A DNA stretch of 64,000 nt from NCBI GenBank assembly GCA_013239625.1, contig MU053881.1:4547957-4611956 (forward strand). Direction: 5' to 3'. Below are positions 5,780-59,900 of this stretch, one piece after another. The position numbers and the translations under genes were made by a program. Source of the stretch: Lama guanicoe (Eukaryota). How positions within the stretch are numbered: position 1 is the first letter of the stretch; the number at the start of each line of letters is the position of its first letter. The notes below the pieces were generated by a model. It searched no databases, was not told the DNA's origin, and was given only the letters and a program-made list of their open reading frames with translations.

Positions 5780-6310
5780 AAGCCGCAGGCCACTTACGCC
5801 TGGAAATACTTGACACGGAGAAGCACCCCGGCCCCCGCCCCCCACCCCGAGCGCGGGCTGCAGCAGCATCTGACCTGCAAGTCTCTAGATCCTTCAGAAC
5901 GTTCTCTGATGCAGACCGAGGTCAGGTATGGTAAATAAAGCGGCTTCCAGTGCAAAATAGACCCCGCTTCTCAGCAGGTGTGGCGGCTGAAATTTTCCAC
6001 TTTGGAAAACGGCTGTGGGCTTGGAGCGCGTTCGAGAGCTCGGCCGCGGCAGCCGTCCAGGCGGCTGAGTGTGTGGTCGTTCGCAAACAGCAGCAGGACC
6101 CTGGGCTTCAGGGCCGGGCTTCGGGGCGAGCCTCTGCTATCGCCCGGCCGGCCGCCAAGGTGCCTCGGGCCTCTGGGCTTCTGCTTCCCTGCCCGCCCAG
6201 AGGGGGAAGCTGAACGAGAGAACCCCTAAGGCGCCCCCAGGCCGAGGCTTCCGGGAGCTGAGGGGTCGGCACGTGCCACGGTTGTGGATGGGCCGGTGCC
6301 GGCTCACGTT
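5780..6310. promoter_or_regulatory. CpG island-like segment with no recognisable exon
   Basis: About 0.5 kb, GC-rich, with dense CpGs (GCGCGTTCGAGAGCTCGGCCGCGGC, CGCCCGGCCGGCCGCC) and a GC box CCCCGCCCC near 5832; flanks are CpG-poor. Confidence 0.6.
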
Positions 6311-6324
6311 TTGAACAAGCCAGG

Positions 6325-6490
6325 ACTCACTTCCTTTCTAGCTGTGTGACTTGGGCCCATCACTCACCTCTCTGAGTCTCAGCTTCCTCCTTAATAAAAC
6401 TAGGAATAATAACACTGGTCTCCCAGGGTTGCTGCAAAGATCGCACCTAAAAGTCTGAAGGAGGAATAGATGCTCAGCAAATGTCAGTTT
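6325..6490 (+). mobile_element. MIR SINE
   Basis: CTAGCTGTGTGACTTGGGC...CCTCTCTGAGTCTCAGCTTCCTC MIR core. Confidence 0.75.
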
Positions 6491-6792: not shown

Positions 6793-6965
6793 TTATATAT
6801 ATTTGTTTAATTAATTTTAATTTCTTTTGATTTTTTAACTTTTTTGGTAGGGGGAGGCAATTAGGTTTAGTTATCTAAATAGATGTTAATGGAGGGACTG
6901 GGGATTGAACCCAGGACCTCGTGCATGCTAAGCACATGCTCTACCACTAAGCTATGCCCTCCTCC
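6793..6965 (-). mobile_element. Camelid tRNA-derived SINE (Vic-1 type)
   Basis: Minus strand has tRNA-like A/B boxes (TAGCTTAGTGGTAGAGC, GGTTCAATCCCC) and an A-rich tail; TSD TGGTTTCT at 6785-6792 and 6966-6973. Confidence 0.9.
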
Positions 6966-8599: not shown

Positions 8600-9270
8600 A
8601 GGAGCTGAGGTCAAAGATTGTGAACTCCTCTCCTCCCTGCATGCCTCGCATCTAACTCACCTGCAGTCCTTTTCATTTTAGCTCTAAAATATACCCAGAC
8701 CCCAGCTCTATCTCTGCGCCTCCACTGCTACCTGGTCTGGGTGAACACCATCTCGCCCCTGGGTGTCCCTGCTAGCCTCCTCCCTGGACTTTTTGCTTCT
8801 GCTCTTGCCCATGGCTGTCTTCTCCTGCTGTAGCCAGAGCAACTCAGGAAGCATCATGTAATTCTACTCAAGGCTCCCGCGTGGCTCCCATCTCAACTAG
8901 AGAAAAAGTCAGGATCTAATCATGGACCCACCGAGCTGGTCCCTCACCACATCTCAACTAGAGAAAATGTCACAATCTAATCATGGACCCACCGAGCTGG
9001 TCCCCCACCACATCTCAACTAGAGAAAATGTCACGATCTAATCATGGACCCACTGAGCTGGTCCCCCACCACATTCCCACTCCCTCTTCCTCTCCAGCCT
9101 CACTAGCCACCTGCTTTCCCCTCTAGCGCCTTTGGAACTATCTTCCCCCCCCCATCCCCGACACACACACGCCCCCAAGCATACCTGCAAGCTTAATCCT
9201 TTACCTCCTGTGGCCTCTGCTCACTCAACACCTCATCAAAGCAGGCTTCCCCAGCCATTCTAAATAAGAC
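8600..9270 (+). mobile_element. LINE-2 remnant containing a tandem repeat
   Basis: L2 blocks CTCCACTGCTACC, CACCATCTCGCCCCTGG, AGCCTCCTCCCTGG, GTGGCTCCCATCTCA. Confidence 0.7.
8889..9074 (+). repeat. Minisatellite, 3 x 61 bp
   Basis: Unit CATCTCAACTAGAGAAAA(A/T)GTCA..ATCTAATCATGGACCCAC(C/T)GAGCTGGTCCC(T/C)CACCA starts at 8889, 8950 and 9011. Confidence 0.97.
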
Positions 9271-13569: not shown

Positions 13570-14436
13570 AATCTGGGAAAATTCAGTTTCTCTACAGTCA
13601 TGTAACTCTCTGACACCAGATCTGTGATTTTTTTCATTCCCACACTGACCAATTCTCCAGTTCTCTGTGGACGCCAACTGGGAGTCCGACAATCCAATTC
13701 AATTCTACATTACCTACCAGGAGATAGCATCAAATCCCACAAGTTAAGGGCTCAGTCCCATGAGGTGGCCCCCACCGGAGATGTCAGTACCAGACCCCAG
13801 GCCTCCCACACTTCTGATCAAATGGCCACAAATCAGGGTTTCCCATGACTCCCTCCATAGGTTCAACAACTTTCTAGAATGGCTCACAGAACCCAGGAGG
13901 GCACTTGACTGATGTTTATCAGTTTACTATAAAGTATACAACAGCCATATAGAAGAGATGCACAGAGCAAGTTTGGGGGTGGGGGATGTCTGGAGCATCC
14001 ATGCCCTGCCCAGGTGCACCACCCTCCCAGCATCTCCATGTGTTCACCAACCTGGAAGCTCTCTGAACCCCATCCTTTTAGGTTTTTAAAAAGGCATGAT
14101 CATGATCAATTAAACCACTGACCATTGGTGACTAACTCAACTTCTAGTCCCTCTCCCCTCCCCCCAAGGAGGTCAGGTGGTGGGGCTGACAGCTCCAACC
14201 CACTGATCCCAGCCATTTCCCCAGTCAACCAGCCCCCATCCTCAGAGGTTTTCCTGAAGTCACCTCATTAACATAAATTTTGGGGTGGTGGGAGGGAGCC
14301 TGTTATGAATAACAAAAGACATTCTTTGCATCCTTATCCCCCTCTTCACTTAGGAAATTCCAAGGATTTTAGGAGCTCTGTGCCAGGAGCAGGGATGAAG
14401 CCCAAAATGTATACTTCTTATTATAAAATCACCACA
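13570..14436 (-). mobile_element. MER21-like ERVL LTR
   Basis: Ends AGGAAATTCCAAGGATTTTAGGAGCTCTGTGCCAGGA...CTTATTATAAAATCACCACA; internal AGGGCTCAGTCCCA and CTAGAATGGCTCACAGAAC. Confidence 0.85.
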
Positions 14437-27620: not shown

Positions 27621-28194
27621 ATGAAGTCCTCCCCTCGCCTCCTCAGACCGTGAGCCCCATCTTATCCATTCCCAGCACAGACAATGTGCTCTTTACGTAT
27701 CTGTTCAAATAGAAGCACCAGAAAGGTTGAAGTAGTAATTGCTTCTGGGTTTTTCACCTGGATCTCACTTTTTTTAAGAAAAATCTCTATGGTATTTGGT
27801 TGCAACATTCTTTTATCAACTCCAAGGTTCCTTGGAAGGAAGATGGTCATGGATGGCAGGGGCGGGAGGGTAGGCAAGTCACATTATTGCCATTTTAAAT
27901 CAAAGGAGAAAGTCTGTGTTGAGGCTTCAGTTCCACCAAGGCGGGAGGGACTCAGCCCTCACCCACCCCTCTCCTGGACAAACCTTCCTCCAGCTCCCTA
28001 CAGGGCAAACAAGTTGTGGCTTCGCCTTGTGTGGGCCTCCCTGGGAAGAGGTGCTCCCTCACCATCGCTGATTAAATCTAGCAAATTGTAAATCCAGCCA
28101 CACCTGATTTCAGAAGTCCCACAACTGGGGAATTCCCTTCCAGTTATGTTAGGACCAAGGTGCAAAAATGTAGGTACAAGGATGTTGCAGCACC

Positions 28195-28356
28195 GGGGGG
28201 ACGGGTGTAGCTCAAGTAGTAGAGCACATGTTTAGCATGCACAAGGTCCTGGGTTCAATCCCCAGTGCCTCCTCTAAAAATAAACAAACAAACAGACGAA
28301 CCTAATTACTCCCCCCCTCCAAAATAGTAAAAAAATTAAAAATTAATTAAAGAAAA
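28195..28356 (+). mobile_element. Camelid tRNA-derived SINE (Vic-1 type)
   Basis: GGGTGTAGCTCAAGTAGTAGAGCACATGTTTAGCATGCACAAGGTCCTGGGTTCAATCCCCAG plus A-rich tail; degenerate TSD AAGGATGTTGCAGCA / AAGAATGTGACAGCA. Confidence 0.92.
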
Positions 28357-28544
28357 AAGAATGTGACAGCATTGTTTGATAAATAAACTTAATTACTTCC
28401 TCCAAAAAAAAGTAAAAAAATAAAAATTTGAAGAATCTGAAAAAATAAAGAATGTCGCAGCATTGTTTGAAGGAGTGAAGTTGTGGACGAGACCTAGGTG
28501 TCCATCCAGGGGACGGGGGAGGAACTGACTACGGTCCATGGGGA

Positions 28545-29294
28545 TGACGGGAGACCAGTCAGCAGGTGGCCCCGTTGGTCTCTGTCCCAGCAGCTCACTC
28601 GGGCCCTCGGCAGCCCCCTCACCCGTTGCCTGTTCCAACACCTGCCTCTCTTTACCTGGTCACTGCTCATTTTTGGTCTCAGACTCTAGATTAGACTCTT
28701 CCCGGGAAGAGGCACCAGGCACACGTTGAGAACAGGCATGACACAGGACAGAAGGGGCAGGACACAAACGCCAGACAAACGCAGAAGGGTGCAGCGGTTA
28801 GGATATGATGTGATAAAGGCCGGCTGGAACCGGCTGAAACCAAGGTGGCTCTGCGAATAGCCCGGTCCCTGAACTTCAGTCCATTATATCTTCACTGTAA
28901 TATCAAAAGTCACTCCCCTCACACAACGACAGTTCCGAGGCGGCCCATAAAAGGCCAAGAGGCAGGCAGCGGCCCAATTCCTGGGAAATTCCCCACCCTT
29001 CCCCGAAATAGCAGGAATATTCCTCCCACTCATTAGCCTATGAAATTACTCAACCCGTAGAACCCTACGACCCCATGCCCTGAGCGTGGACCCCATGCCC
29101 TGAGGCCATTCTCATTTTCTGAGATGGTCCGCATTCTGCCTATGGAGCGTGTATCTCTCCAAATAAAGTGGCCTTCGCTTTTCCTCGGCTCCCTCTTGAG
29201 TTCTTTCCTACGCGAAGCCAAGAGCCCTCACCTGGCGGTGCGTCCTAAGGACTCCTGCAGGTCCCAGGATGCGCCATCTCCCTCTCCTGCAACA
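28545..29294 (+). mobile_element. MER41-like ERV1 solo LTR
   Basis: Collinear MER41 blocks: GCCGGC...AAACCAAGGTGGC, AAAAGTCACTCCC...GACAGTT, TTCC..GGGAA.TT.CCC.CCC.TTCCC.GAAA, CTGCCTATGGAG, AATAAA at 29162, TTCTTTCCTACGCGAAGCCAAGAGCCCTC, ending AACA. The 5' boundary is approximate. Confidence 0.8.
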
Positions 29295-29799
29295 GATGTG
29301 TAGGTACTGACGTGGACAAGATGCTCACGATGTAGTGCTGAGGGGCAGAGACGTTCCAGGATGGCATGTGCGTCACGCTGGGAAGTGTGCAGAGGTGTGA
29401 AGGTGACGTCGTGAAGGGGCCGGGTCACCCAACAGGGCTTGTGAAGCACCCAGAGGGCAGGGGCAGCAGGAAGTCACTGCCCGGCCTCGGCCTCAGGGGA
29501 CGAACGGAGGCCCAAGGTCATTCCCGAGTCCGGAGAGAGCTGGGCTGTGGAAGAAGGGCCCAACAAGGCCCGTGGCCTCAGGGAGCCAGGCCACTCGGGG
29601 AGAACCACCCAACGGGGGGTCGGGGGGAGCAGGAGGGGGGAGGAGGGAGTAAATACCTCGGCCTCCTTCTCCCATTGGCCACCCCACCCTGAAGCCGGAG
29701 GAGCCCAGGGGAGCCAGGGCACTGCTGGGACACAGACACAGGGCAGGGAAAGACGGAGAGCTGCTGTAGGGCTGAGGGAGAGGAGGCAAACAGAGAAAA

Positions 29800-30020
29800 G
29801 CCATCAGAAGTGTGGTTTGATCCCACTGGTGTAAATTATATATATCTTTTCACATGCCTGAAAGCATCTAAGGACACACAGCAAACCACCCACGGCGGCC
29901 GTCTCTGGGGAGCGGAATTTGGGGGTGGAGGAGATGTCAGAGGGAAAGCAGAGTTTGACTTTATGCACTTGTGTATTCTTGGAATCCTTAACAATGAGCT
30001 GGTATCTTTAGAATAAAGTG
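29800..30020 (+). mobile_element. Very old L1 (L1ME-like) 3' terminus; upstream pieces at ~28160-28545 and ~29295-29420
   Basis: TGATCCCACTGGTGTAAA...CTAAGGACACACAGCAAAC...TCTCTGGGGAG...TTTGACTTTATG...AATAAA. Confidence 0.55.
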
Positions 30021-30329
30021 TCATCCTCAGCTCTGCAGCGCTGCTGGCCACCGGAAGTGCCAGGAAGAGAAAATCTTCCCTGACTGTGCAGACCAGGCCG
30101 GGCTGCCTGAGACACTCCCGGAGGTGCTGGCGGGGAGAACCACGGGGGCAAAGGCAGGGAGGCTGGAAAGCGACGGCGCATCGGGAAGGGCCAGCAGGGG
30201 ACTGGGGATGTGTTGCAGGTGTATGAGGGCCGGGCCGGTAGGTGGGTACACCACCCGAAGGGCCTGAAACCAGGAGGCCAGGACGAAGCGGTGCTTTCCT
30301 GCTCAGACTGTCCCGTGTTTCCAGAGGCT

Positions 30330-30520
30330 TACTTCCGGCTCTGTCACTTGGCTGTGGACCCCAGGGCAATTTACACAACTTCTCTGAGCCTCCTCATCAA
30401 GAAGATGACTAACAACCCCCCACCCTTCGTCTTGCAGGATTGCTACAAGGATGCAGTGAGACGTTTGCACAGTGCCTGGTACCTAGCAGACCCTCAGTCA
30501 CTGGTATTATTACTGTTGTT
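30330..30520 (+). mobile_element. MIR SINE
   Basis: GGCTCTGTCACTTGGCTGTG...ACTTCTCTGAGCCTC...CACAGTGCCTGGTAC. Confidence 0.7.
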
Positions 30521-32209
30521 GTTGTCAGCATAGGCCAAGCTCACAGTGGAGGGGGCCCATCTCTCAGCTGGGATCCTGGGGCGATCGAGGTAAAGACCCC
30601 AGGGTCCTCCCGCTGGAGGAGGCTGCCGGTGTTGTGCATCCCGTGGTCACACAGCGTCCCCCTCTCCCCGGCCAGCTGTCTGACACCCTGTAAACAGACG
30701 GGCGGGTGGGGCGGCCAGTGAGACAGCGCAGATGGTACTGAGCAAATCCAGCCGCACTTTTGGGAAAACAAGTCAGAGGCGATGGGGGCCCCCGTGCACA
30801 TCTTGGTCCGTGACAGACAGCACACCCAGGGAGGCCTCCAAGGGAAATTATGAGACGTCCCAGACCCTGGCGGGCCTCGCCAAGAACGATCTCCACCCTT
30901 GATTTCCGTGGCGCACTGCCACGGAGGCGCTGCAGACTGCCAGAGGTCACGCTGGCAGGGCTCACACCAGAGGATGTGCAGGCCCTCTCAGGTCTGGGAT
31001 CTCAGAGAGCACTGCCTTCTCGGCTCCCTCCCCAAGTCCTTGCCCAGCTTCTGGTTCCTTCCCACTCCATTCACCTGCATGCTCCTCCCTTCCCAGGGCC
31101 TTGGGACAGACTCCCAGCCAGGAAGACGGGGGGTGTCTGAGCGCAGAGTCGCCCGCGTGGCACAGCGGAAAGGGTGGAGGACAGGGCTGACCAAGGCAGA
31201 GTGTCCAGGGGGGCTGGGGTGGGAAGCCAGACCCTGGTTTGGCCTGGAGTTGGGAAAGCCACCGTCCTGCCACCTCCTCTGCTCCCTCCGATGTCGCGTC
31301 CTTCTTCTTTCCAGAACAGTTAGTCATTCCCTCGTTTGTGTCCTCCCTGCCCTTGGAGCAGATCTACTCACAGCACTACCATAGTCTTCTGCTGTGTTTG
31401 AAACCACCCACAACTACACACACACACAAACTTTCCTTACCATCCATTCTAAGGCTTACTCCAAACTTTCACTTAAAAAGTGGCACTCTTGATTTTTGCC
31501 AAGATGGGCAAAGCCATTCAAAGGAAACCTGAGTTTAATACTAACACTATGCCAAGAGTGACACACAGCAATGCCACGCATTGCTACTCCTAATAAGGAT
31601 CAGGGCAAACGTTTCTATCCGCGGGGGAAGCAGCGTGCTTATTACGTGGTGTGCGTTCTCACTCATCTTGGGGATAACCCTGCCGGGGAGCTACTGTCAT
31701 CATCCTCAGGTTCCAGGTGTGAAACGTGCAGCCCACAGAGGAAAGGGGACTTTCTCAGTGACACACCTTATAAGTGGCTGACCCAGCTGTCCAGTCCAGG
31801 TATAGCTGCGGGGGGTGCCCTCCCCGCCCAAGCACGTGCTCTCAAGCTTTCTTTCCAAGTAACAGGTGGGGACTTTCCTGATCCCCGTCATGTCCACATC
31901 TGACCGGCTGAGCTCATGCACAGCCAGTGCTCCCCAGCTCGTGCGATCGGGCGACAGTTTCCCGTCCGTAGAGACATGGTCTTCCTACATCTGTTGTCCA
32001 GTTCTGCTGCCCTCCATGCTTATTACAACTTGCTGCCGCCGGGAAGCTTTTGGTCTCCTCATCTCCTGTAGGGCAAACAGGCCCAGCCATGTCACGGCAC
32101 CTCCTTGGAGCCTTCCTCGGCAGCCCCTCGGGCCCACACTGCCCCCGCTTCCCTTCCTGCTGCACCCAGTAGGCATGAATGACGAAGGCCTGTGAGCCAG
32201 TGGGCCTGG

Positions 32210-33050
32210 GATTCCAAGCAGGAACTCTGAAATCCACCTGCCTGGGTCAAAGGGCAGCTCGGCCACTGGGCAGGCGTGTTCTGCCTCTGAGTCTTCTGTC
32301 CCCTCGTCTGTTAGTTTCTGGGGTGAGTAGTGAAAAAAGAAGCTAAGCACGAAGAGCTCAGCACAGACCCTCTCGCATAGTAAGTACCCATTAAATGCAA
32401 ATGTACTGCATTAGAAATGTGTTTATGTGCTGGGCAGTTTTCACAGCAGGTTAGTGGAGGGAAGCCCAGACCCACACATAGATCATTCTGACGTGGCGTG
32501 TCAGCGCTGGCACGGAGAGCACTGCGGGACGGTGCCCGCCCATCAAGGCTTCAGATGAGGCTTTCCAGAGGAGAGGCCACCCACTGCCTGTCAAGGATGG
32601 CACAGGCCACCGGGCGTTTGTTGTAAGCTGTTTGGGGTTATTCTGAAATTGCTTCTCACGTGGATTTACTTTGTCTCTTGCAACTTGAAGGCATGACGTC
32701 TTCTCCGCTGTATATAACGCGTTCACCACGCCTCATCCCTTTGCTTCCTCACTGCACCCCACCCTTGAGGCTCACATGCATCACTGACAGCTGTGTTACC
32801 ACTTAATATTTAGAAGACAAAGAAGGAAGAGGCGTGCAAGCCATTAAGGAACACCTTCTGCGATGCCAGGCGTCTCCCCTGCACTGTCAGTTCTAATTCA
32901 CGCAGTAGCTCGCTCTATGCTACACCACTTGCATTTTACAGATGAAAAAAACTAAGGGTCAAAGAGGAACGTGCCCAGGTTGAGGTAACTAGAGATGACA
33001 CGGCTGGACTCTGTTCCCAGGTTCATCTTAGCCCTAAGCCTTCCCCCAAA
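32210..33050. mobile_element. MIR remnants (+ at ~32210-32400, - at ~32870-33050)
   Basis: GCCTCTGAGTCTTCTGTCCCCTCGTCTG...CATAGTAAGT and CATTTTACAGATGAAAAAAACTAAGG. Confidence 0.6.
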
Positions 33051-46520: not shown

Positions 46521-47453
46521 GAAAGAGGGCGAGAGAGCAGTCCACAGCCCATAGATATTTAAAAGATAATGACAATATATTAGGAGGAATTCAATATTAC
46601 TAATTTTCAAATTTTAGCTAAAATGCAAAATCCTTAGAAAAATGAAACTAACAAAAAACTGACACAAGATGAAATAAAAACCTTGGAACCGTTCTACACC
46701 TATTAAAGGTATGAAGCTGTGATCAATGGTATCTATACAAATGAATCTCTAAGCATGGATGCCTTTCCTCCAAGTAAATTTCTTTAAATATTTATAGATG
46801 AAATGGAACCAGTCTTACATAAACAGTTGAATAGACTGAAGAAAAGAAAATATTTCCTAACTTGTTTAATGAGGCCATTGTAATCTCGACACCAAAAACT
46901 TACTGGATGTGGGGGAAAAGTATGGGTCAATGAGTTTTATGAACAGAGATACAAAAATACTAAACCAGCAAATCGGTTTCAGCAAAAGCTGAAAATGATA
47001 ATAAATCATGATCATGTTGGATTTGTTTCATGAATAAAAGGATGGTTTCATATTCAAAATAAATTATTGTAATTCACCATATTAACTGAATAAAAGAAAA
47101 CAATATGATCATCTCAGTAGATGTATAAATAGCTTTTGATGAGTTTCAACACCTGTTCATGACTCCAAAAATAATCTTCCTTGCACAGGAATAGAAGGAA
47201 TAGAAGTTAAAAATCTTTAACCCATAAAGAGTGTCTACAAAAAAACCTACAGCAAGTATCATTCTTAAAGACCCTACTGAACACGTTCTGCCCAAGAATG
47301 AAAATGAGCAAAGATGCCTGTTTTTTTCACCACTGCTATTAAATATTGGATTGGAAGTTCTGCTCAGCGCAAAAGGGCAAGAAAAAGGAAAAGTATACAA
47401 TTTGGAAGAAAAATGTTAAACTGTCATCATTTGCAAAAAAAAAATGACTTTGT

Positions 47454-48069
47454 CGGTTTTTATGGCTGAATAGAATTCCATTGTATAAATATATCACATC
47501 TTCTTTATCCAGTCACCTGTTGATGGACATTTAGGCTGTTTCCATGTTTTGGCTATTGTAAATAGTGCTGCTATGAACATTGGGGTGCAGGTGTCATCCT
47601 GAAGTAGATTTCCTTCTGGATACAAGCCCAGGAGTGGGATTCCTGGGTCATATGGTAAGTCTATTCCTAGTCTTTTGAGGAATCTCCACACTGTTTTCCA
47701 TAGTGGCTGCACCAAACTGCATTCCCACCAGCAGTCAGGAGGGTTCCCCTTTCTCCATAGCCTCTCCAGCATTTGTCATTTGTGGATCTTTGAATGACGG
47801 ACATTGTGACTGGTGTGAGGTGATACCTCATTGTAGTTTTGATTTGCATTTCTCTGATAATTAGTGATATTGAACATTTTTTCATGTGCTTTTTGATCAT
47901 TTGTGTGTCTTCTTTGGAGAATTGCTTGTTTAGGTCTTCTGCCCATTTTTGGATTGGGTTGTTTATTTTTTTCTTATTGAGTCGTATGAGCTGCTTATAT
48001 ATTCTGGAGATCAAGCCTTTGAAATTTGACACAACATTGTAAAATGATTATAAATCAATAAAAAATGTT
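47454..48069. mobile_element. Young camelid L1 insertion with 5' inversion (47454-48020 antisense ORF2 C-terminus; 48021-48069 sense 3' tail)
   Basis: Minus-strand ORFs encode L1 ORF2 C-terminal motifs ([61 protein letters not shown]); TSD AAAAAAATGACTTTGT at 47438-47453 and 48070-48085. Confidence 0.93.
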
Positions 48070-51738: not shown

Positions 51739-52230
51739 TGTTTTGGTTATCTTTTGCTATGCAATAATTCAATCCCAAACTTAGTGACTTAAAACAACAA
51801 GGATCATTTCTTTGCTCATGATTTTGCAGCTGGACCAGTGGGGACACTTCATGTCTGCTCCAAGCGGCATCAGCAGGGTCAGCCGGGCGGGGGCTGGAAG
51901 ATGCGCTCTCCAGCTGCCTGACTCCTGCGGCCGACAAGCTGGTGCTGGCTGTTGGCTGGGAGTTCAGCTGGGCGCTCAGGGAATGGAGAAGAATCGTGGG
52001 CTTCTCCACGGGGCTGCCTGGGCGGCCTCACAGCATGGCAGCTGTCTTCAGGAGGGAGAAAGCAGAAGCAGCCAGTCCTGTCAAAGCTAGACCTGGCACT
52101 GACTGGCACAGCATCGTTGCTGCCCCAATTCAAGAGAAATACAGCTCACTTCTCAGTGTAGGAAATACAGCTCACTTCTCAGTGTAGGAAGAGACAAAGA
52201 ACCCTCGATTATCTTTGATCCACCGTTCAC
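51739..52230 (-). mobile_element. MaLR MLT1 (H-like) LTR
   Basis: AAACTTAGTGACTTAAAACAAC...GCTGGTGCTGGCTGTTGGCTGGGAG...CCTCACAGCATGGCAGCTG. Confidence 0.85.
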
Positions 52231-54574: not shown

Positions 54575-55037
54575 GTAATGGCCAACAGGCACATGAAAAG
54601 ATGCTCTAACTATCAGAGAAACGCATCTCAAAACTACAAGGAGTCAGAAGCATTATTTTCATCACAGCATATGAAAGGTACATGCTATCAACATGCTTTA
54701 TGATTCCTGATGTTGACCTTTGATGAAAACAGCACTAGTCTCACACTAGTCAGAATGGCCATCATCAAAACGTTTACAAACATAAATGCTGGAGAGCATG
54801 TGGACAAAGGGGAATCTTCCTACGCTGTTGGTGGGAATGTAAATTGGTGCAGCCATTATGGGGAACAGTATAGAGGTTCCTTGAAAAACTGAAAATAGAG
54901 TTACCATATGATCCAGCAGTCCCACTCTTGGACATATATCCAGAGAAAACCAATGTTCATAGCAGCACTGTTTACAATAGCCAAGACATGGAAGCAAACT
55001 AAATGTCCATCAACAGAGAAGTGGATAAAGAAGATGT

Positions 55038-56928: not shown

Positions 56929-59900
56929 GCTTCTCTACAGCACAGTGTGGTGTCACACCCCCCCTCCAACGTACCAGGGTCTCCGAGAGAGCAGTGGCTT
57001 CTTTTGGATCTGCCCCCAGCATGACACCAGGTACTAATTAAACACGTACTGACTAACCAGCATAGATAAGGAAAAAAATTCTGAAAAATCAATTGTTACA
57101 TCGTTTTATCAAAGTCCCTGCCTCCTGCGTGTTTCTGTTCCCATCTCTGGCACCCTGTATGCATCACGGCTGCCCGGTAGTAACTTTCTGGGCCACCCAC
57201 ACCACACAGCACCCTTCCCAGAGATGTGGATGTGCGAATCTGCCCTGTCTTCTGGACAGAGGTCTGCCACCTCTGCAGACCTCACCCTGCCTTCTAGTGT
57301 TTTCCTGCCCCTGAGCCAACCGAGCCCAAAATCCACGTCGCGGTTCCCTTCAGGTGCCTTCTCAGTCGCATGGGGAGACAAATGAGATCTGCTCCGGTTT
57401 GGCTTTGTTCACGAAATGTCCTCTGGTGGGAAAACACAACCGAACCGAAGCCCCAAACTCCGGTTTGGTTCTCAGTGATATAAAAAATACTTGGATTTGG
57501 TTCGAGGTTGAGCAAACTGGTGCATTGTGTTCTGGTTTCTGGTTCGTAGTTCAGGCCAAGTCCCTGCTCCAGACAGAAAGAATGTCCCTGGAATGTGTCT
57601 TCCAACGAGGGCTCAACAGCTGAACGCGCCGGGGGTCCCAGCGGAGGCCGCCTGCTCAGCAGACGCCCGGGGACGTCCCTGCAGCTCCAGCCGCCATCTC
57701 CGAGGCTGCGGGGACAGGGCTCGGCGGCATGTCCGGCCTGCTTCTCCGAGGAAGGCCATGCTCCCTTCCATGGCCTAGAGAGGGACACAGGGCATGAGCG
57801 CGGCTGAGCCCGCTCTCAGCCCGAGGGACCGGGGAGAGGGGTGGGGGTGTCACTGTGTAGATGTGCCAGCATCACACAAGCACAGCTCCAGGGATCTCAG
57901 GGGCCAGCGGAGAACCTAAAGGACTAAACAAACATTTGGCTGATCGGGAGGCCATGGGGGAGTGGTGGGTGCTGGGGCGACCGGCCACAGGCATTCAAAT
58001 TCAGACTGTCTTCAGCCCAGTGCGCCTTCTGTGCAGCTGGCTGGTCTGAGAGGCCTGTGGAGGACGCCCCACGCCTTCCTAGTTGGCAAGCGTAGACTCA
58101 GAGCACAGTTTATCAGGGCCACACATCTCTCTCCCTCCCCAGCCAGGAAGCGAGGCAGGGCCAAGGACAGACCATCAGGATACTCGTCCCCAGGGAGCAG
58201 CTGGGGGTGTTGGGGACACCGGGCAGTGAATCATCTAGGAGGAATTTTGAAAGGAACACACATATTTCCACTCTAGGCTCCCTCCCACGCCGATCCACAC
58301 ACATCAAAGGGGTCCTCAGATGCAGGGCTGATCCGGCTCGCCCTAAATGCTGGAAACCCGAGGGCTGGGACCAGAAGGCACGTCCCTGAGGGGCTGCGCC
58401 AATAATGCGATGTGGGGAGGGACACAGGCCACCACGCAGGAAGCTGACAAGCACTGTCAAGGGAAATGGAATTAAAGCTCCAAGCGGCGCTGTAGCCACA
58501 TACCTCTGTTTCTCAGGGTGATTTTTCTTATACCCTCATCCTTTACAAAAACAATCGACCAACGGTCAGTCTTATCAAGGCAGCTGGGGTGTCCCCTGAC
58601 TTAGCTCAAAGCCATTTTTATTCTGCCGTGACTCCGTGGATGGCGATCACCGCCTGAGACATGATCCAGAAATATTTCCCAGGGCAGCCACCCTGACGGG
58701 ACCCGACCACCAGCACATGGACTTTCAGATGGGTTCAATTACAGGGTTTCTTACACCTACATCTTCATTAGTTCTACATTGCCGAGTACTTGGAATGTGC
58801 TGTCAGCTTAAAAAAAAAAAAGTGTTATTTTTTTCCCAAGGATTCAACACTGTCTAGTCCTATTTAAAAAAGAAAGGGAAAAAAAAATAGCTTGGCTCAA
58901 GCATATATTGCTAATGGGCATGGAATTGATTCACAAGTCCCCAAATCTAGTTATGTAAAAGTAATTACTGCAACCTAGGGTAATTGGTTCCATATCCAAT
59001 AGTCACAGAAGGCTGTGTATATATATGGATTTGAATTGGGAGAAAAAAGAATGAAAATGGAAAAAAAAAAAGAAATGTCAGAGAGCATTTAAACTACATA
59101 TATATATTTATGTACCCCTAGAACATCTCTAGCTGTGTGGGATAAAGATCTTGAAAGAAATCAAGGTAACAGAACTGGCAGAGACCAGAGCCCTGAAGAC
59201 CCGAGCATCTCAAGCAAGACTGGGAAGTGGGCAGTCTGGGCACCGGAAATCACGAAGAACAGAGTCGACGGCAGCCTGGAAGGCCCACTCCACAGCTAGT
59301 GACTTCCAGCATGCAGTGGGTGGACACCTCGTGCTCAGCGGCAGGGCGTACCCCAAAGTCCCGGTGAAGCCTCTGCCTGGCTCCCAGTCCGTGGAGTTTC
59401 ATATCTTATTTGTGGCTCTGGGAACCCAGTTCCACCTCTGTCCCACAAGTGGGTCCTCCAGAGTTGGAAGGTATTAGCCTTAGAGGACGCAGCACAGGGT
59501 CTGCTGGAACCTTCCCATATGGCTTCAGAAACCACTGCATCAAAGAAAGGGATCCGTGGGGAAGATCTGTGGACCTGAAGGAAACTTTATGGGCAAACAG
59601 GAAGACCTTCAGAGTTGGAAACTCTGGAAGGGCGTTAAAGGCAAACTTTCCCCAGTGATGTGGAGATGATGGAATTGACTTCACGGATCTAAATGTGAGA
59701 TTTGACACTGATGTCTGTTACACTTTGTGCTTGTTGGAGCTTAAGATTTTTTCGAGCTTTCTTTCTGCCACCTACTTCTGTCCTGGCTTTGTTTCATCGG
59801 CAAATGTAATAAGCCTACCTTACGTATCTTGTACATATTATTAATGAAAATGCCGGATAAGGGAAGCCCTCACCCACCCAGGGACCTCCACCCACTTGTC

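Follow-up and report, generated by a model that had tools for sequence, protein, structure and literature searches.

The window analysed here, i.e., the whole stretch of 64 kb, contains a solo LTR of the ERV1 class that is inserted into a fragment of an old L1 3′ UTR (Table 1). The L1 fragment probably continues past the LTR at 29295–29370, where the right flank is collinear with the same L1 in a weak alignment (23/300 shuffles). The tRNA-derived SINE further upstream is, we assume, probably the camelid vic-1, and three of its copies elsewhere in the window score as tRNA-like and are the only Rfam matches found there. The existence of the vic-1 SINE has been reported previously (PMC3531059). 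A 49-bp near-duplication (28331–28379 and 28422–28470, 91 bp apart) involves the SINE tail and the L1 flank, and a palindromic kB consensus is found outside the LTR at 28127–28137, 850 bp upstream of site 1. Elsewhere in the window, three 61-bp units form a tandem array at 8889–9074 (95% matches), and an exact 26-bp tandem duplication is located at 52136–52190. An older LTR-like element at 13590–14360 on the minus strand was recognised by eye only, and an inverted L1 3′ piece (47437–48066) is inserted into an older L1. Two CpG-rich patches (5800–6330 and 57500–57900) have a CpG O/E of about 0.6, with no gene recognised in either, while the non-repetitive region 58400–59100 gives the visual impression of conserved non-coding DNA of the kind found in developmental gene deserts.

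The Pfam scan took in 150 of the 152 ORFs of 88 aa or more and left out 253 ORFs of 62–87 aa. No Pfam family above the cut-off was found in the 150 ORFs, a search that short exons would escape. The only Pfam match in the window is in an antisense frame of the inverted L1 piece (47670–48047); as it falls below the cut-off (E 0.008), it was rejected as a real domain and taken as a chance match. Neither a target gene nor an interferon-stimulated gene (ISG) was found within the 64-kb window, and enhancers act beyond 64 kb.

Table 1. Coordinates of the LTR, its internal features and the adjoining repeats.
Feature	Position	Strand	Remarks
tRNA-derived SINE with A-rich tail	28196–28330	+	Repeat copies at 6886, 46383, 53174 and 62077
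Old L1 3′ UTR fragment, target of the LTR insertion	28451–28544	+	Aligns to L1 end at 54952–55029 (0/300 shuffles)
Solo ERV1-class, MER41-like LTR	28545–29294	+	3′ end confirmed, 5′ end inferred; TG...CA ends
5′ part of LTR, single-copy depth	28545–28735	+	No relative aligns at 80% in X4, X5 and X8
16-bp perfect palindrome holding a second N4 STAT site (28699–28708)	28696–28711	.	Overlooked in the earlier note
Site 1: N4 STAT site TTCCTGGGAA overlapping kB consensus GGGAAATTCC	28978–28992	+	Counterpart of the first tandem GAS by position
Site 2: N3 GAS TTCCCCGAA	28999–29007	+	Core same as IRF1 promoter GAS; minority state among relatives
12-bp palindrome AGGAATATTCCT	29013–29024	.	Another letter at 29013 and 29020 in 68–75% of depth
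Conserved MER41-type block downstream of STAT sites	29021–29059	+	Bovine guide 21/27 at 29033
20-bp internal tandem duplication	29069–29108	+	In X4, X5 and X8; not in X15 contig
Polyadenylation signal AATAAA	29162–29167	+	Poly(A) signal of the LTR

Boundaries and base composition of the LTR

With its TG...CA ends and polyadenylation signal, the element has the features of an interspersed, multi-copy LTR. Public sequencing runs were used to find its relatives. Among the 24 rows listed, 14 contained 0.90–0.97 of the words of the stretch; these 14 span seven studies and four organism labels, and three rows may represent the source itself. Contigs from three DNA runs (X4, X5 and X8) and one RNA run (X15) were aligned to the LTR at 80% likeness. 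The solo LTR is present in all three DNA runs, in which 316, 300 and 343 contigs, respectively, align to the LTR stretch, mostly at less than 90% likeness and with a summed depth of about 50–250 times that of the flank, a ratio that does not equal copy number. Because many contigs match and the alignments of relatives break off exactly at 29294, the LTR is interspersed and its 3′ end is confirmed. The 5′ boundary at 28545 we infer solely from the initial TG and the adjoining L1 sequence, and cover by relatives is patchy over 28736–28920. A GATG lies directly 3′ of the LTR, while the upstream GATG overlaps the first TG of the LTR, so that a 4-bp target-site duplication is present only in imperfect form. 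The window contains neither a second LTR nor internal ERV sequence, and no match to the LTR was found among plasmids. Pattern scans for further copies returned 0, 3, 4 and 3 loci, none of which extends beyond 26 bp against the LTR; these 10 loci were rejected as chance matches.

The 750-bp LTR has a GC content of 0.556 and contains 31 CpG, giving a CpG O/E of 0.55 compared with 0.31 for the window, and is thus as CpG-rich as the earlier note had claimed. This O/E value is reached by 2.5% of 1265 sliding 750-bp windows, and the 3.7 kb downstream of the LTR (29295–33044) are also CpG-rich (O/E 0.44). Among the positions where this copy differs from the majority of its relatives (22 LTR rows tabulated), 14 have G/C here and A/T in the relatives, against 3 with the opposite pattern (p = 0.013). 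Five of these 14 G/C sites are CpG, and CpG decay in the relatives can make part of the C>T/G>A excess. CpG richness was considered as a sign of protected open chromatin and rejected as unproven, since CpG is almost as frequent in the downstream flank and this copy is GC-biased. A local drift from A/T to G/C could explain the CpGs, and it may also have created or preserved the second GAS in the absence of selection.

The STAT and kB motifs in this copy and its relatives

The motif cluster was first described in the earlier note, and all of its motifs were found exactly where they had been placed: the N4 STAT site TTCCTGGGAA at 28978–28987, the overlapping kB consensus GGGAAATTCC at 28983–28992, the N3 GAS TTCCCCGAA and the palindrome AGGAATATTCCT. 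The internal duplication is likewise real, with an exact 16-mer at 29069 and 29089. The two STAT sites start at 28978 and 28999, 21 bp apart. N4 spacing favours STAT6 over STAT1. The kB site GGGAAATTCC is presumably the IFNB1 PRDII site, as originally identified. The 16-bp palindrome in the 5′ part of the LTR reads as an N3 GAS in an X15 contig (A at 28706). Across the 64-kb window, there are 22 N3, 18 N4 and 11 kB pattern matches at 8 places. Of 2000 dinucleotide shuffles of the LTR, 18 had a kB site no more than 50 bp from an N3 GAS, and none had an N4 site as well; in the shuffled 64-kb window, the same kB + N3 GAS pairing was found anywhere in 37% of 200 shuffles, and in 3% with an N4 site. 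The motif set was chosen after the sequence was seen, and all these shuffle figures therefore flatter the cluster, which is real and locally unusual, yet not extraordinary.

The states of the motifs vary among relatives. In the three DNA runs, 69%, 71% and 74% of the aligned depth reads A at 29005, which breaks the GAS at site 2. The kB + GAS cassette, the family-wide occurrence of which had been proposed as a check, is therefore not family-wide in its exact form, as about 70% of depth is without the G at 29005. Since C>T at 29004 is absent from the 40 variant rows listed out of 83, the A/G difference at 29005 looks like a difference between source elements and not like random CpG decay. The palindrome at 29013–29024 is not family-wide either, with 60–75% of relative depth differing there. 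At site 1, most relatives stop aligning (in X4, depth is 341 at 28989 vs 2816 at 28964), their loose ends falling at 28984 and 28987, and one-letter gaps occur at 28989/28990. In one group, the loose ends are a G shorter and read as an N3 GAS, which agrees with the earlier reading of site 1 as the first tandem GAS turned into a kB/N4 site; another group keeps the N4 site with a shorter kB-like word. Among the depth that passes site 1, 17–24% lacks one letter at 28989, and the kB pattern still fits. As far as these alignments go, site 1 is about one change (a small indel) away from a GAS, an N4 site or a kB site throughout the family, in which probably only a minority of copies have the kB reading.

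In X4, X5 and X8, the contigs orthologous to this copy show no difference up to 29044 other than at 28666 (and, in X8, at 28881), and the motif cluster is therefore unchanged in them. Contigs of X15 extend across the 3′ junction of the LTR (4 differences in 140) and over the flank (4 in 148); they would belong to one orthologous allele and point to a more distant relative that shares the LTR insertion. The 496-base contig of X15 does not contain the 20-bp duplication, whereas the G at 29005 appears to be present in it. The unchanged cluster in X4, X5 and X8 and the G apparently kept in X15 fit conservation as well as a short divergence time. Relatives in X15 carry a TATA-like A-run near 29055–29063 that is missing from this copy, the promoter activity of which is therefore doubtful. 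The X15 RNA library was rejected as evidence of expression, since transcription cannot be read from contigs and DNA may be present in the library.

Relation to bovine, primate and camelid MER41 elements

Eight bovine oligonucleotides (Table S16 of PMC9435751) were aligned to the window, and five of the eight had no match in it. According to the Methods of the same paper, the guides delete inside each MER41_BT element (PMC9435751). The MER41_BT.IL2RB guide aligns at 29033–29059 with 21/27 identical bases and a 14-base run; this is its best place in the window (0/83 other tiles were as good) and amounts to homology with a known MER41-like element over 27 bp only. Three of the four LOC510185 oligonucleotides align in PCR order at 28976, 29033 and 29074, of which only the guide at 29033 is significant. 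The order of the STAT block is the same in the bovine element. For a MER41_BT primer that contains an N3 GAS, the best alignment, a weak one, is at site 1 (15/24), where this copy instead has an N4 site plus a kB site. The bovine copies are backed by chromatin and deletion evidence (PMC9435751). The reported deletions show control of IFNAR2, IFNGR2 and IL2RB by MER41_BT copies; in MDBK cells, 107 of the 5491 copies (~2%) proved inducible, a GAS is present in 1071, and 45 of the inducible copies are within 250 kb of an ISG (PMC9435751). RELA summits also fall on the bovine element, with 43 text matches to MER41_BT in a supplementary table of RELA summits.

Primate MER41B, the product of a germ-line invasion separate from that of the camelid element, has two N3 GAS, whereas in this copy site 1 is an N4 site and the pair of N3 GAS is not found. 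The human MER41B-derived motif M2 aligns weakly at 29021 (38/1000 shuffles; of 85 tiles, one had a higher score and three an equal one). Positions 378–387 of MER41B, at which RELA motifs lie, presumably overlap its first GAS. The tandem STAT sites of MER41B are described as 21 bp apart (PMC2897888), the same spacing as in this copy. In RELA-bound copies of human MER41B, RELA motifs are enriched at 378–387 through single changes to a near-motif (PMC12212084), and a literature search for motif positions in MER41B found no paper.

Two promoter elements offer further comparisons. The N4/kB overlap at site 1 resembles the STAT6/NF-kB element of the eotaxin (CCL11) promoter, which unlike site 1 is promoter-proximal and tested; a literature search for this overlapping eotaxin element found no paper. 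Over 11 consecutive bases, site 2 is identical to the IRF1 GAS probe of PMC1550284, which bears out the identification of TTCCCCGAA as the IRF1 GAS core; the IRF1 element itself is promoter-proximal and has been tested.

A camelid host is likely for this copy, to judge by the tRNA-derived SINE. Table S13 of PMC9435751 gives six Repbase subfamilies for the alpaca (MER41_Vpa and MER41B/C/C1/C2/D_Vpa) with 9,914 elements (sum of six rows), and many MER41*_Vpa elements are reported to be orthologous in the wild Bactrian camel (PMC9435751). As in that group, this copy is a multi-copy LTR with a MER41-type core in a camelid-type genome, and its insertion is apparently common to a more distant relative, like that of many Vpa copies shared with the camel; its motif states are those of a minority among the aligned relatives. 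We would provisionally assign it to the MER41_Vpa group. A literature search found no functional study of camelid MER41. The MER41-like identity proposed in the earlier note agrees with the multi-copy contigs, the bovine guide match and the 21-bp STAT spacing shared with MER41B. The LTR very probably belongs to the MER41-like LTRs as an ordinary member of this multi-copy family, which runs to thousands of elements in camelid genomes; it is one copy among about 10,000.

Origin and role of the motif block

In our judgement, the locus can with good confidence be read as a camelid MER41-like solo LTR in an L1, carrying the STAT block inherited from its family and most likely without a selected role. 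An old provirus would have inserted into the L1 fragment in exon-poor DNA, and its two LTRs would then have recombined to leave the solo LTR, a recombination step that is itself presumed. The motif cluster would be the U3 STAT block inherited from the family, in which one-letter indels at site 1 could yield an N3 GAS, an N4 site or a kB site, the N4 plus kB state being that of this copy. The second GAS, the palindrome and part of the CpG excess would be lineage or subfamily states, plausibly arising from local A/T-to-G/C drift. Judging by its motifs, the copy, which is without the tandem N3 pair, may in open chromatin be bound by RELA or by one STAT1 dimer, and enhancer activity is possible. 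The 107 inducible copies compared with the 1071 GAS-bearing copies in cattle (PMC9435751) would set the prior for inducibility near 10%, and that for a target lower. Of the earlier interpretation, the MER41-like LTR, the tandem-GAS position and the IRF1 core stand. The claim that the kB + GAS pairing is special or new does not, since a RELA motif in a constant position of MER41B (PMC12212084) and RELA summits that fall on MER41_BT have already been published; the motif block is a local variant of one already known in the MER41-like family.

The copy could also be inducible and functionally idle, binding RELA and/or STAT1 after stimulation with no target under selection. Its strong motif matches, its locally high GC and CpG and the presence of both human MER41B and bovine MER41_BT copies under RELA summits are in keeping with this, but we regard it as unlikely, given that, in one cell line, no more than ~10% of the bovine copies with a GAS proved inducible (PMC9435751). 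Co-option as a signal-integrating enhancer would go further, with RELA and STAT1, bound at sites 1 and 2, respectively, acting together on a distant gene after TNF/TLR and IFN-gamma stimulation, and STAT6 possibly competing at site 1. A perfect kB consensus does lie 7 bp from an IRF1-type GAS, in a pairing that is rare among LTR shuffles (18/2000) and in a cluster unchanged in three DNA runs, and deletions of bovine MER41_BT affect IFNAR2, IFNGR2 and IL2RB (PMC9435751). However, no gene was found in the window, the base rate of inducibility in bovine copies is low and the tandem N3 GAS has been lost, and such co-option seems very unlikely to us. We see only a slim chance of a more elaborate arrangement, a three-way switch in which a STAT6-type and NF-kB overlap sits beside one STAT1 site and which, in this copy or a small camelid subfamily, would have been kept since before the X15 split as a distal enhancer for TNF/TLR, IFN-gamma and IL-4.

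A different kind of alternative concerns the identity of the element, which could be a recombinant or differently named ERV1 LTR with only its 3′ two-thirds in common with MER41-like elements. MER41 labels can hide variant LTRs, and the human AIM2 enhancer was moved from MER41 to ERV-Saru on such grounds (PMC11905727); here, 28545–28735 is without a relative and cover over 28736–28920 is patchy. Against this, joints link pieces of 28750–28860 with pieces from 28928 onwards in the same contigs, and short contigs together with the 80% cut-off would lose divergent stretches of U3; in our view, this alternative is highly improbable.

The copy itself is most likely a neutral relic of the camelid MER41-like family. 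If it proved active, a third lineage would join those in which MER41 has been co-opted, and a one-letter indel would be seen to swap an interferon site for an NF-kB/STAT6 site. The lead lies at the level of the family: in camelid MER41-like copies, site 1 takes GAS, N4 or kB states, which could be counted copy by copy.
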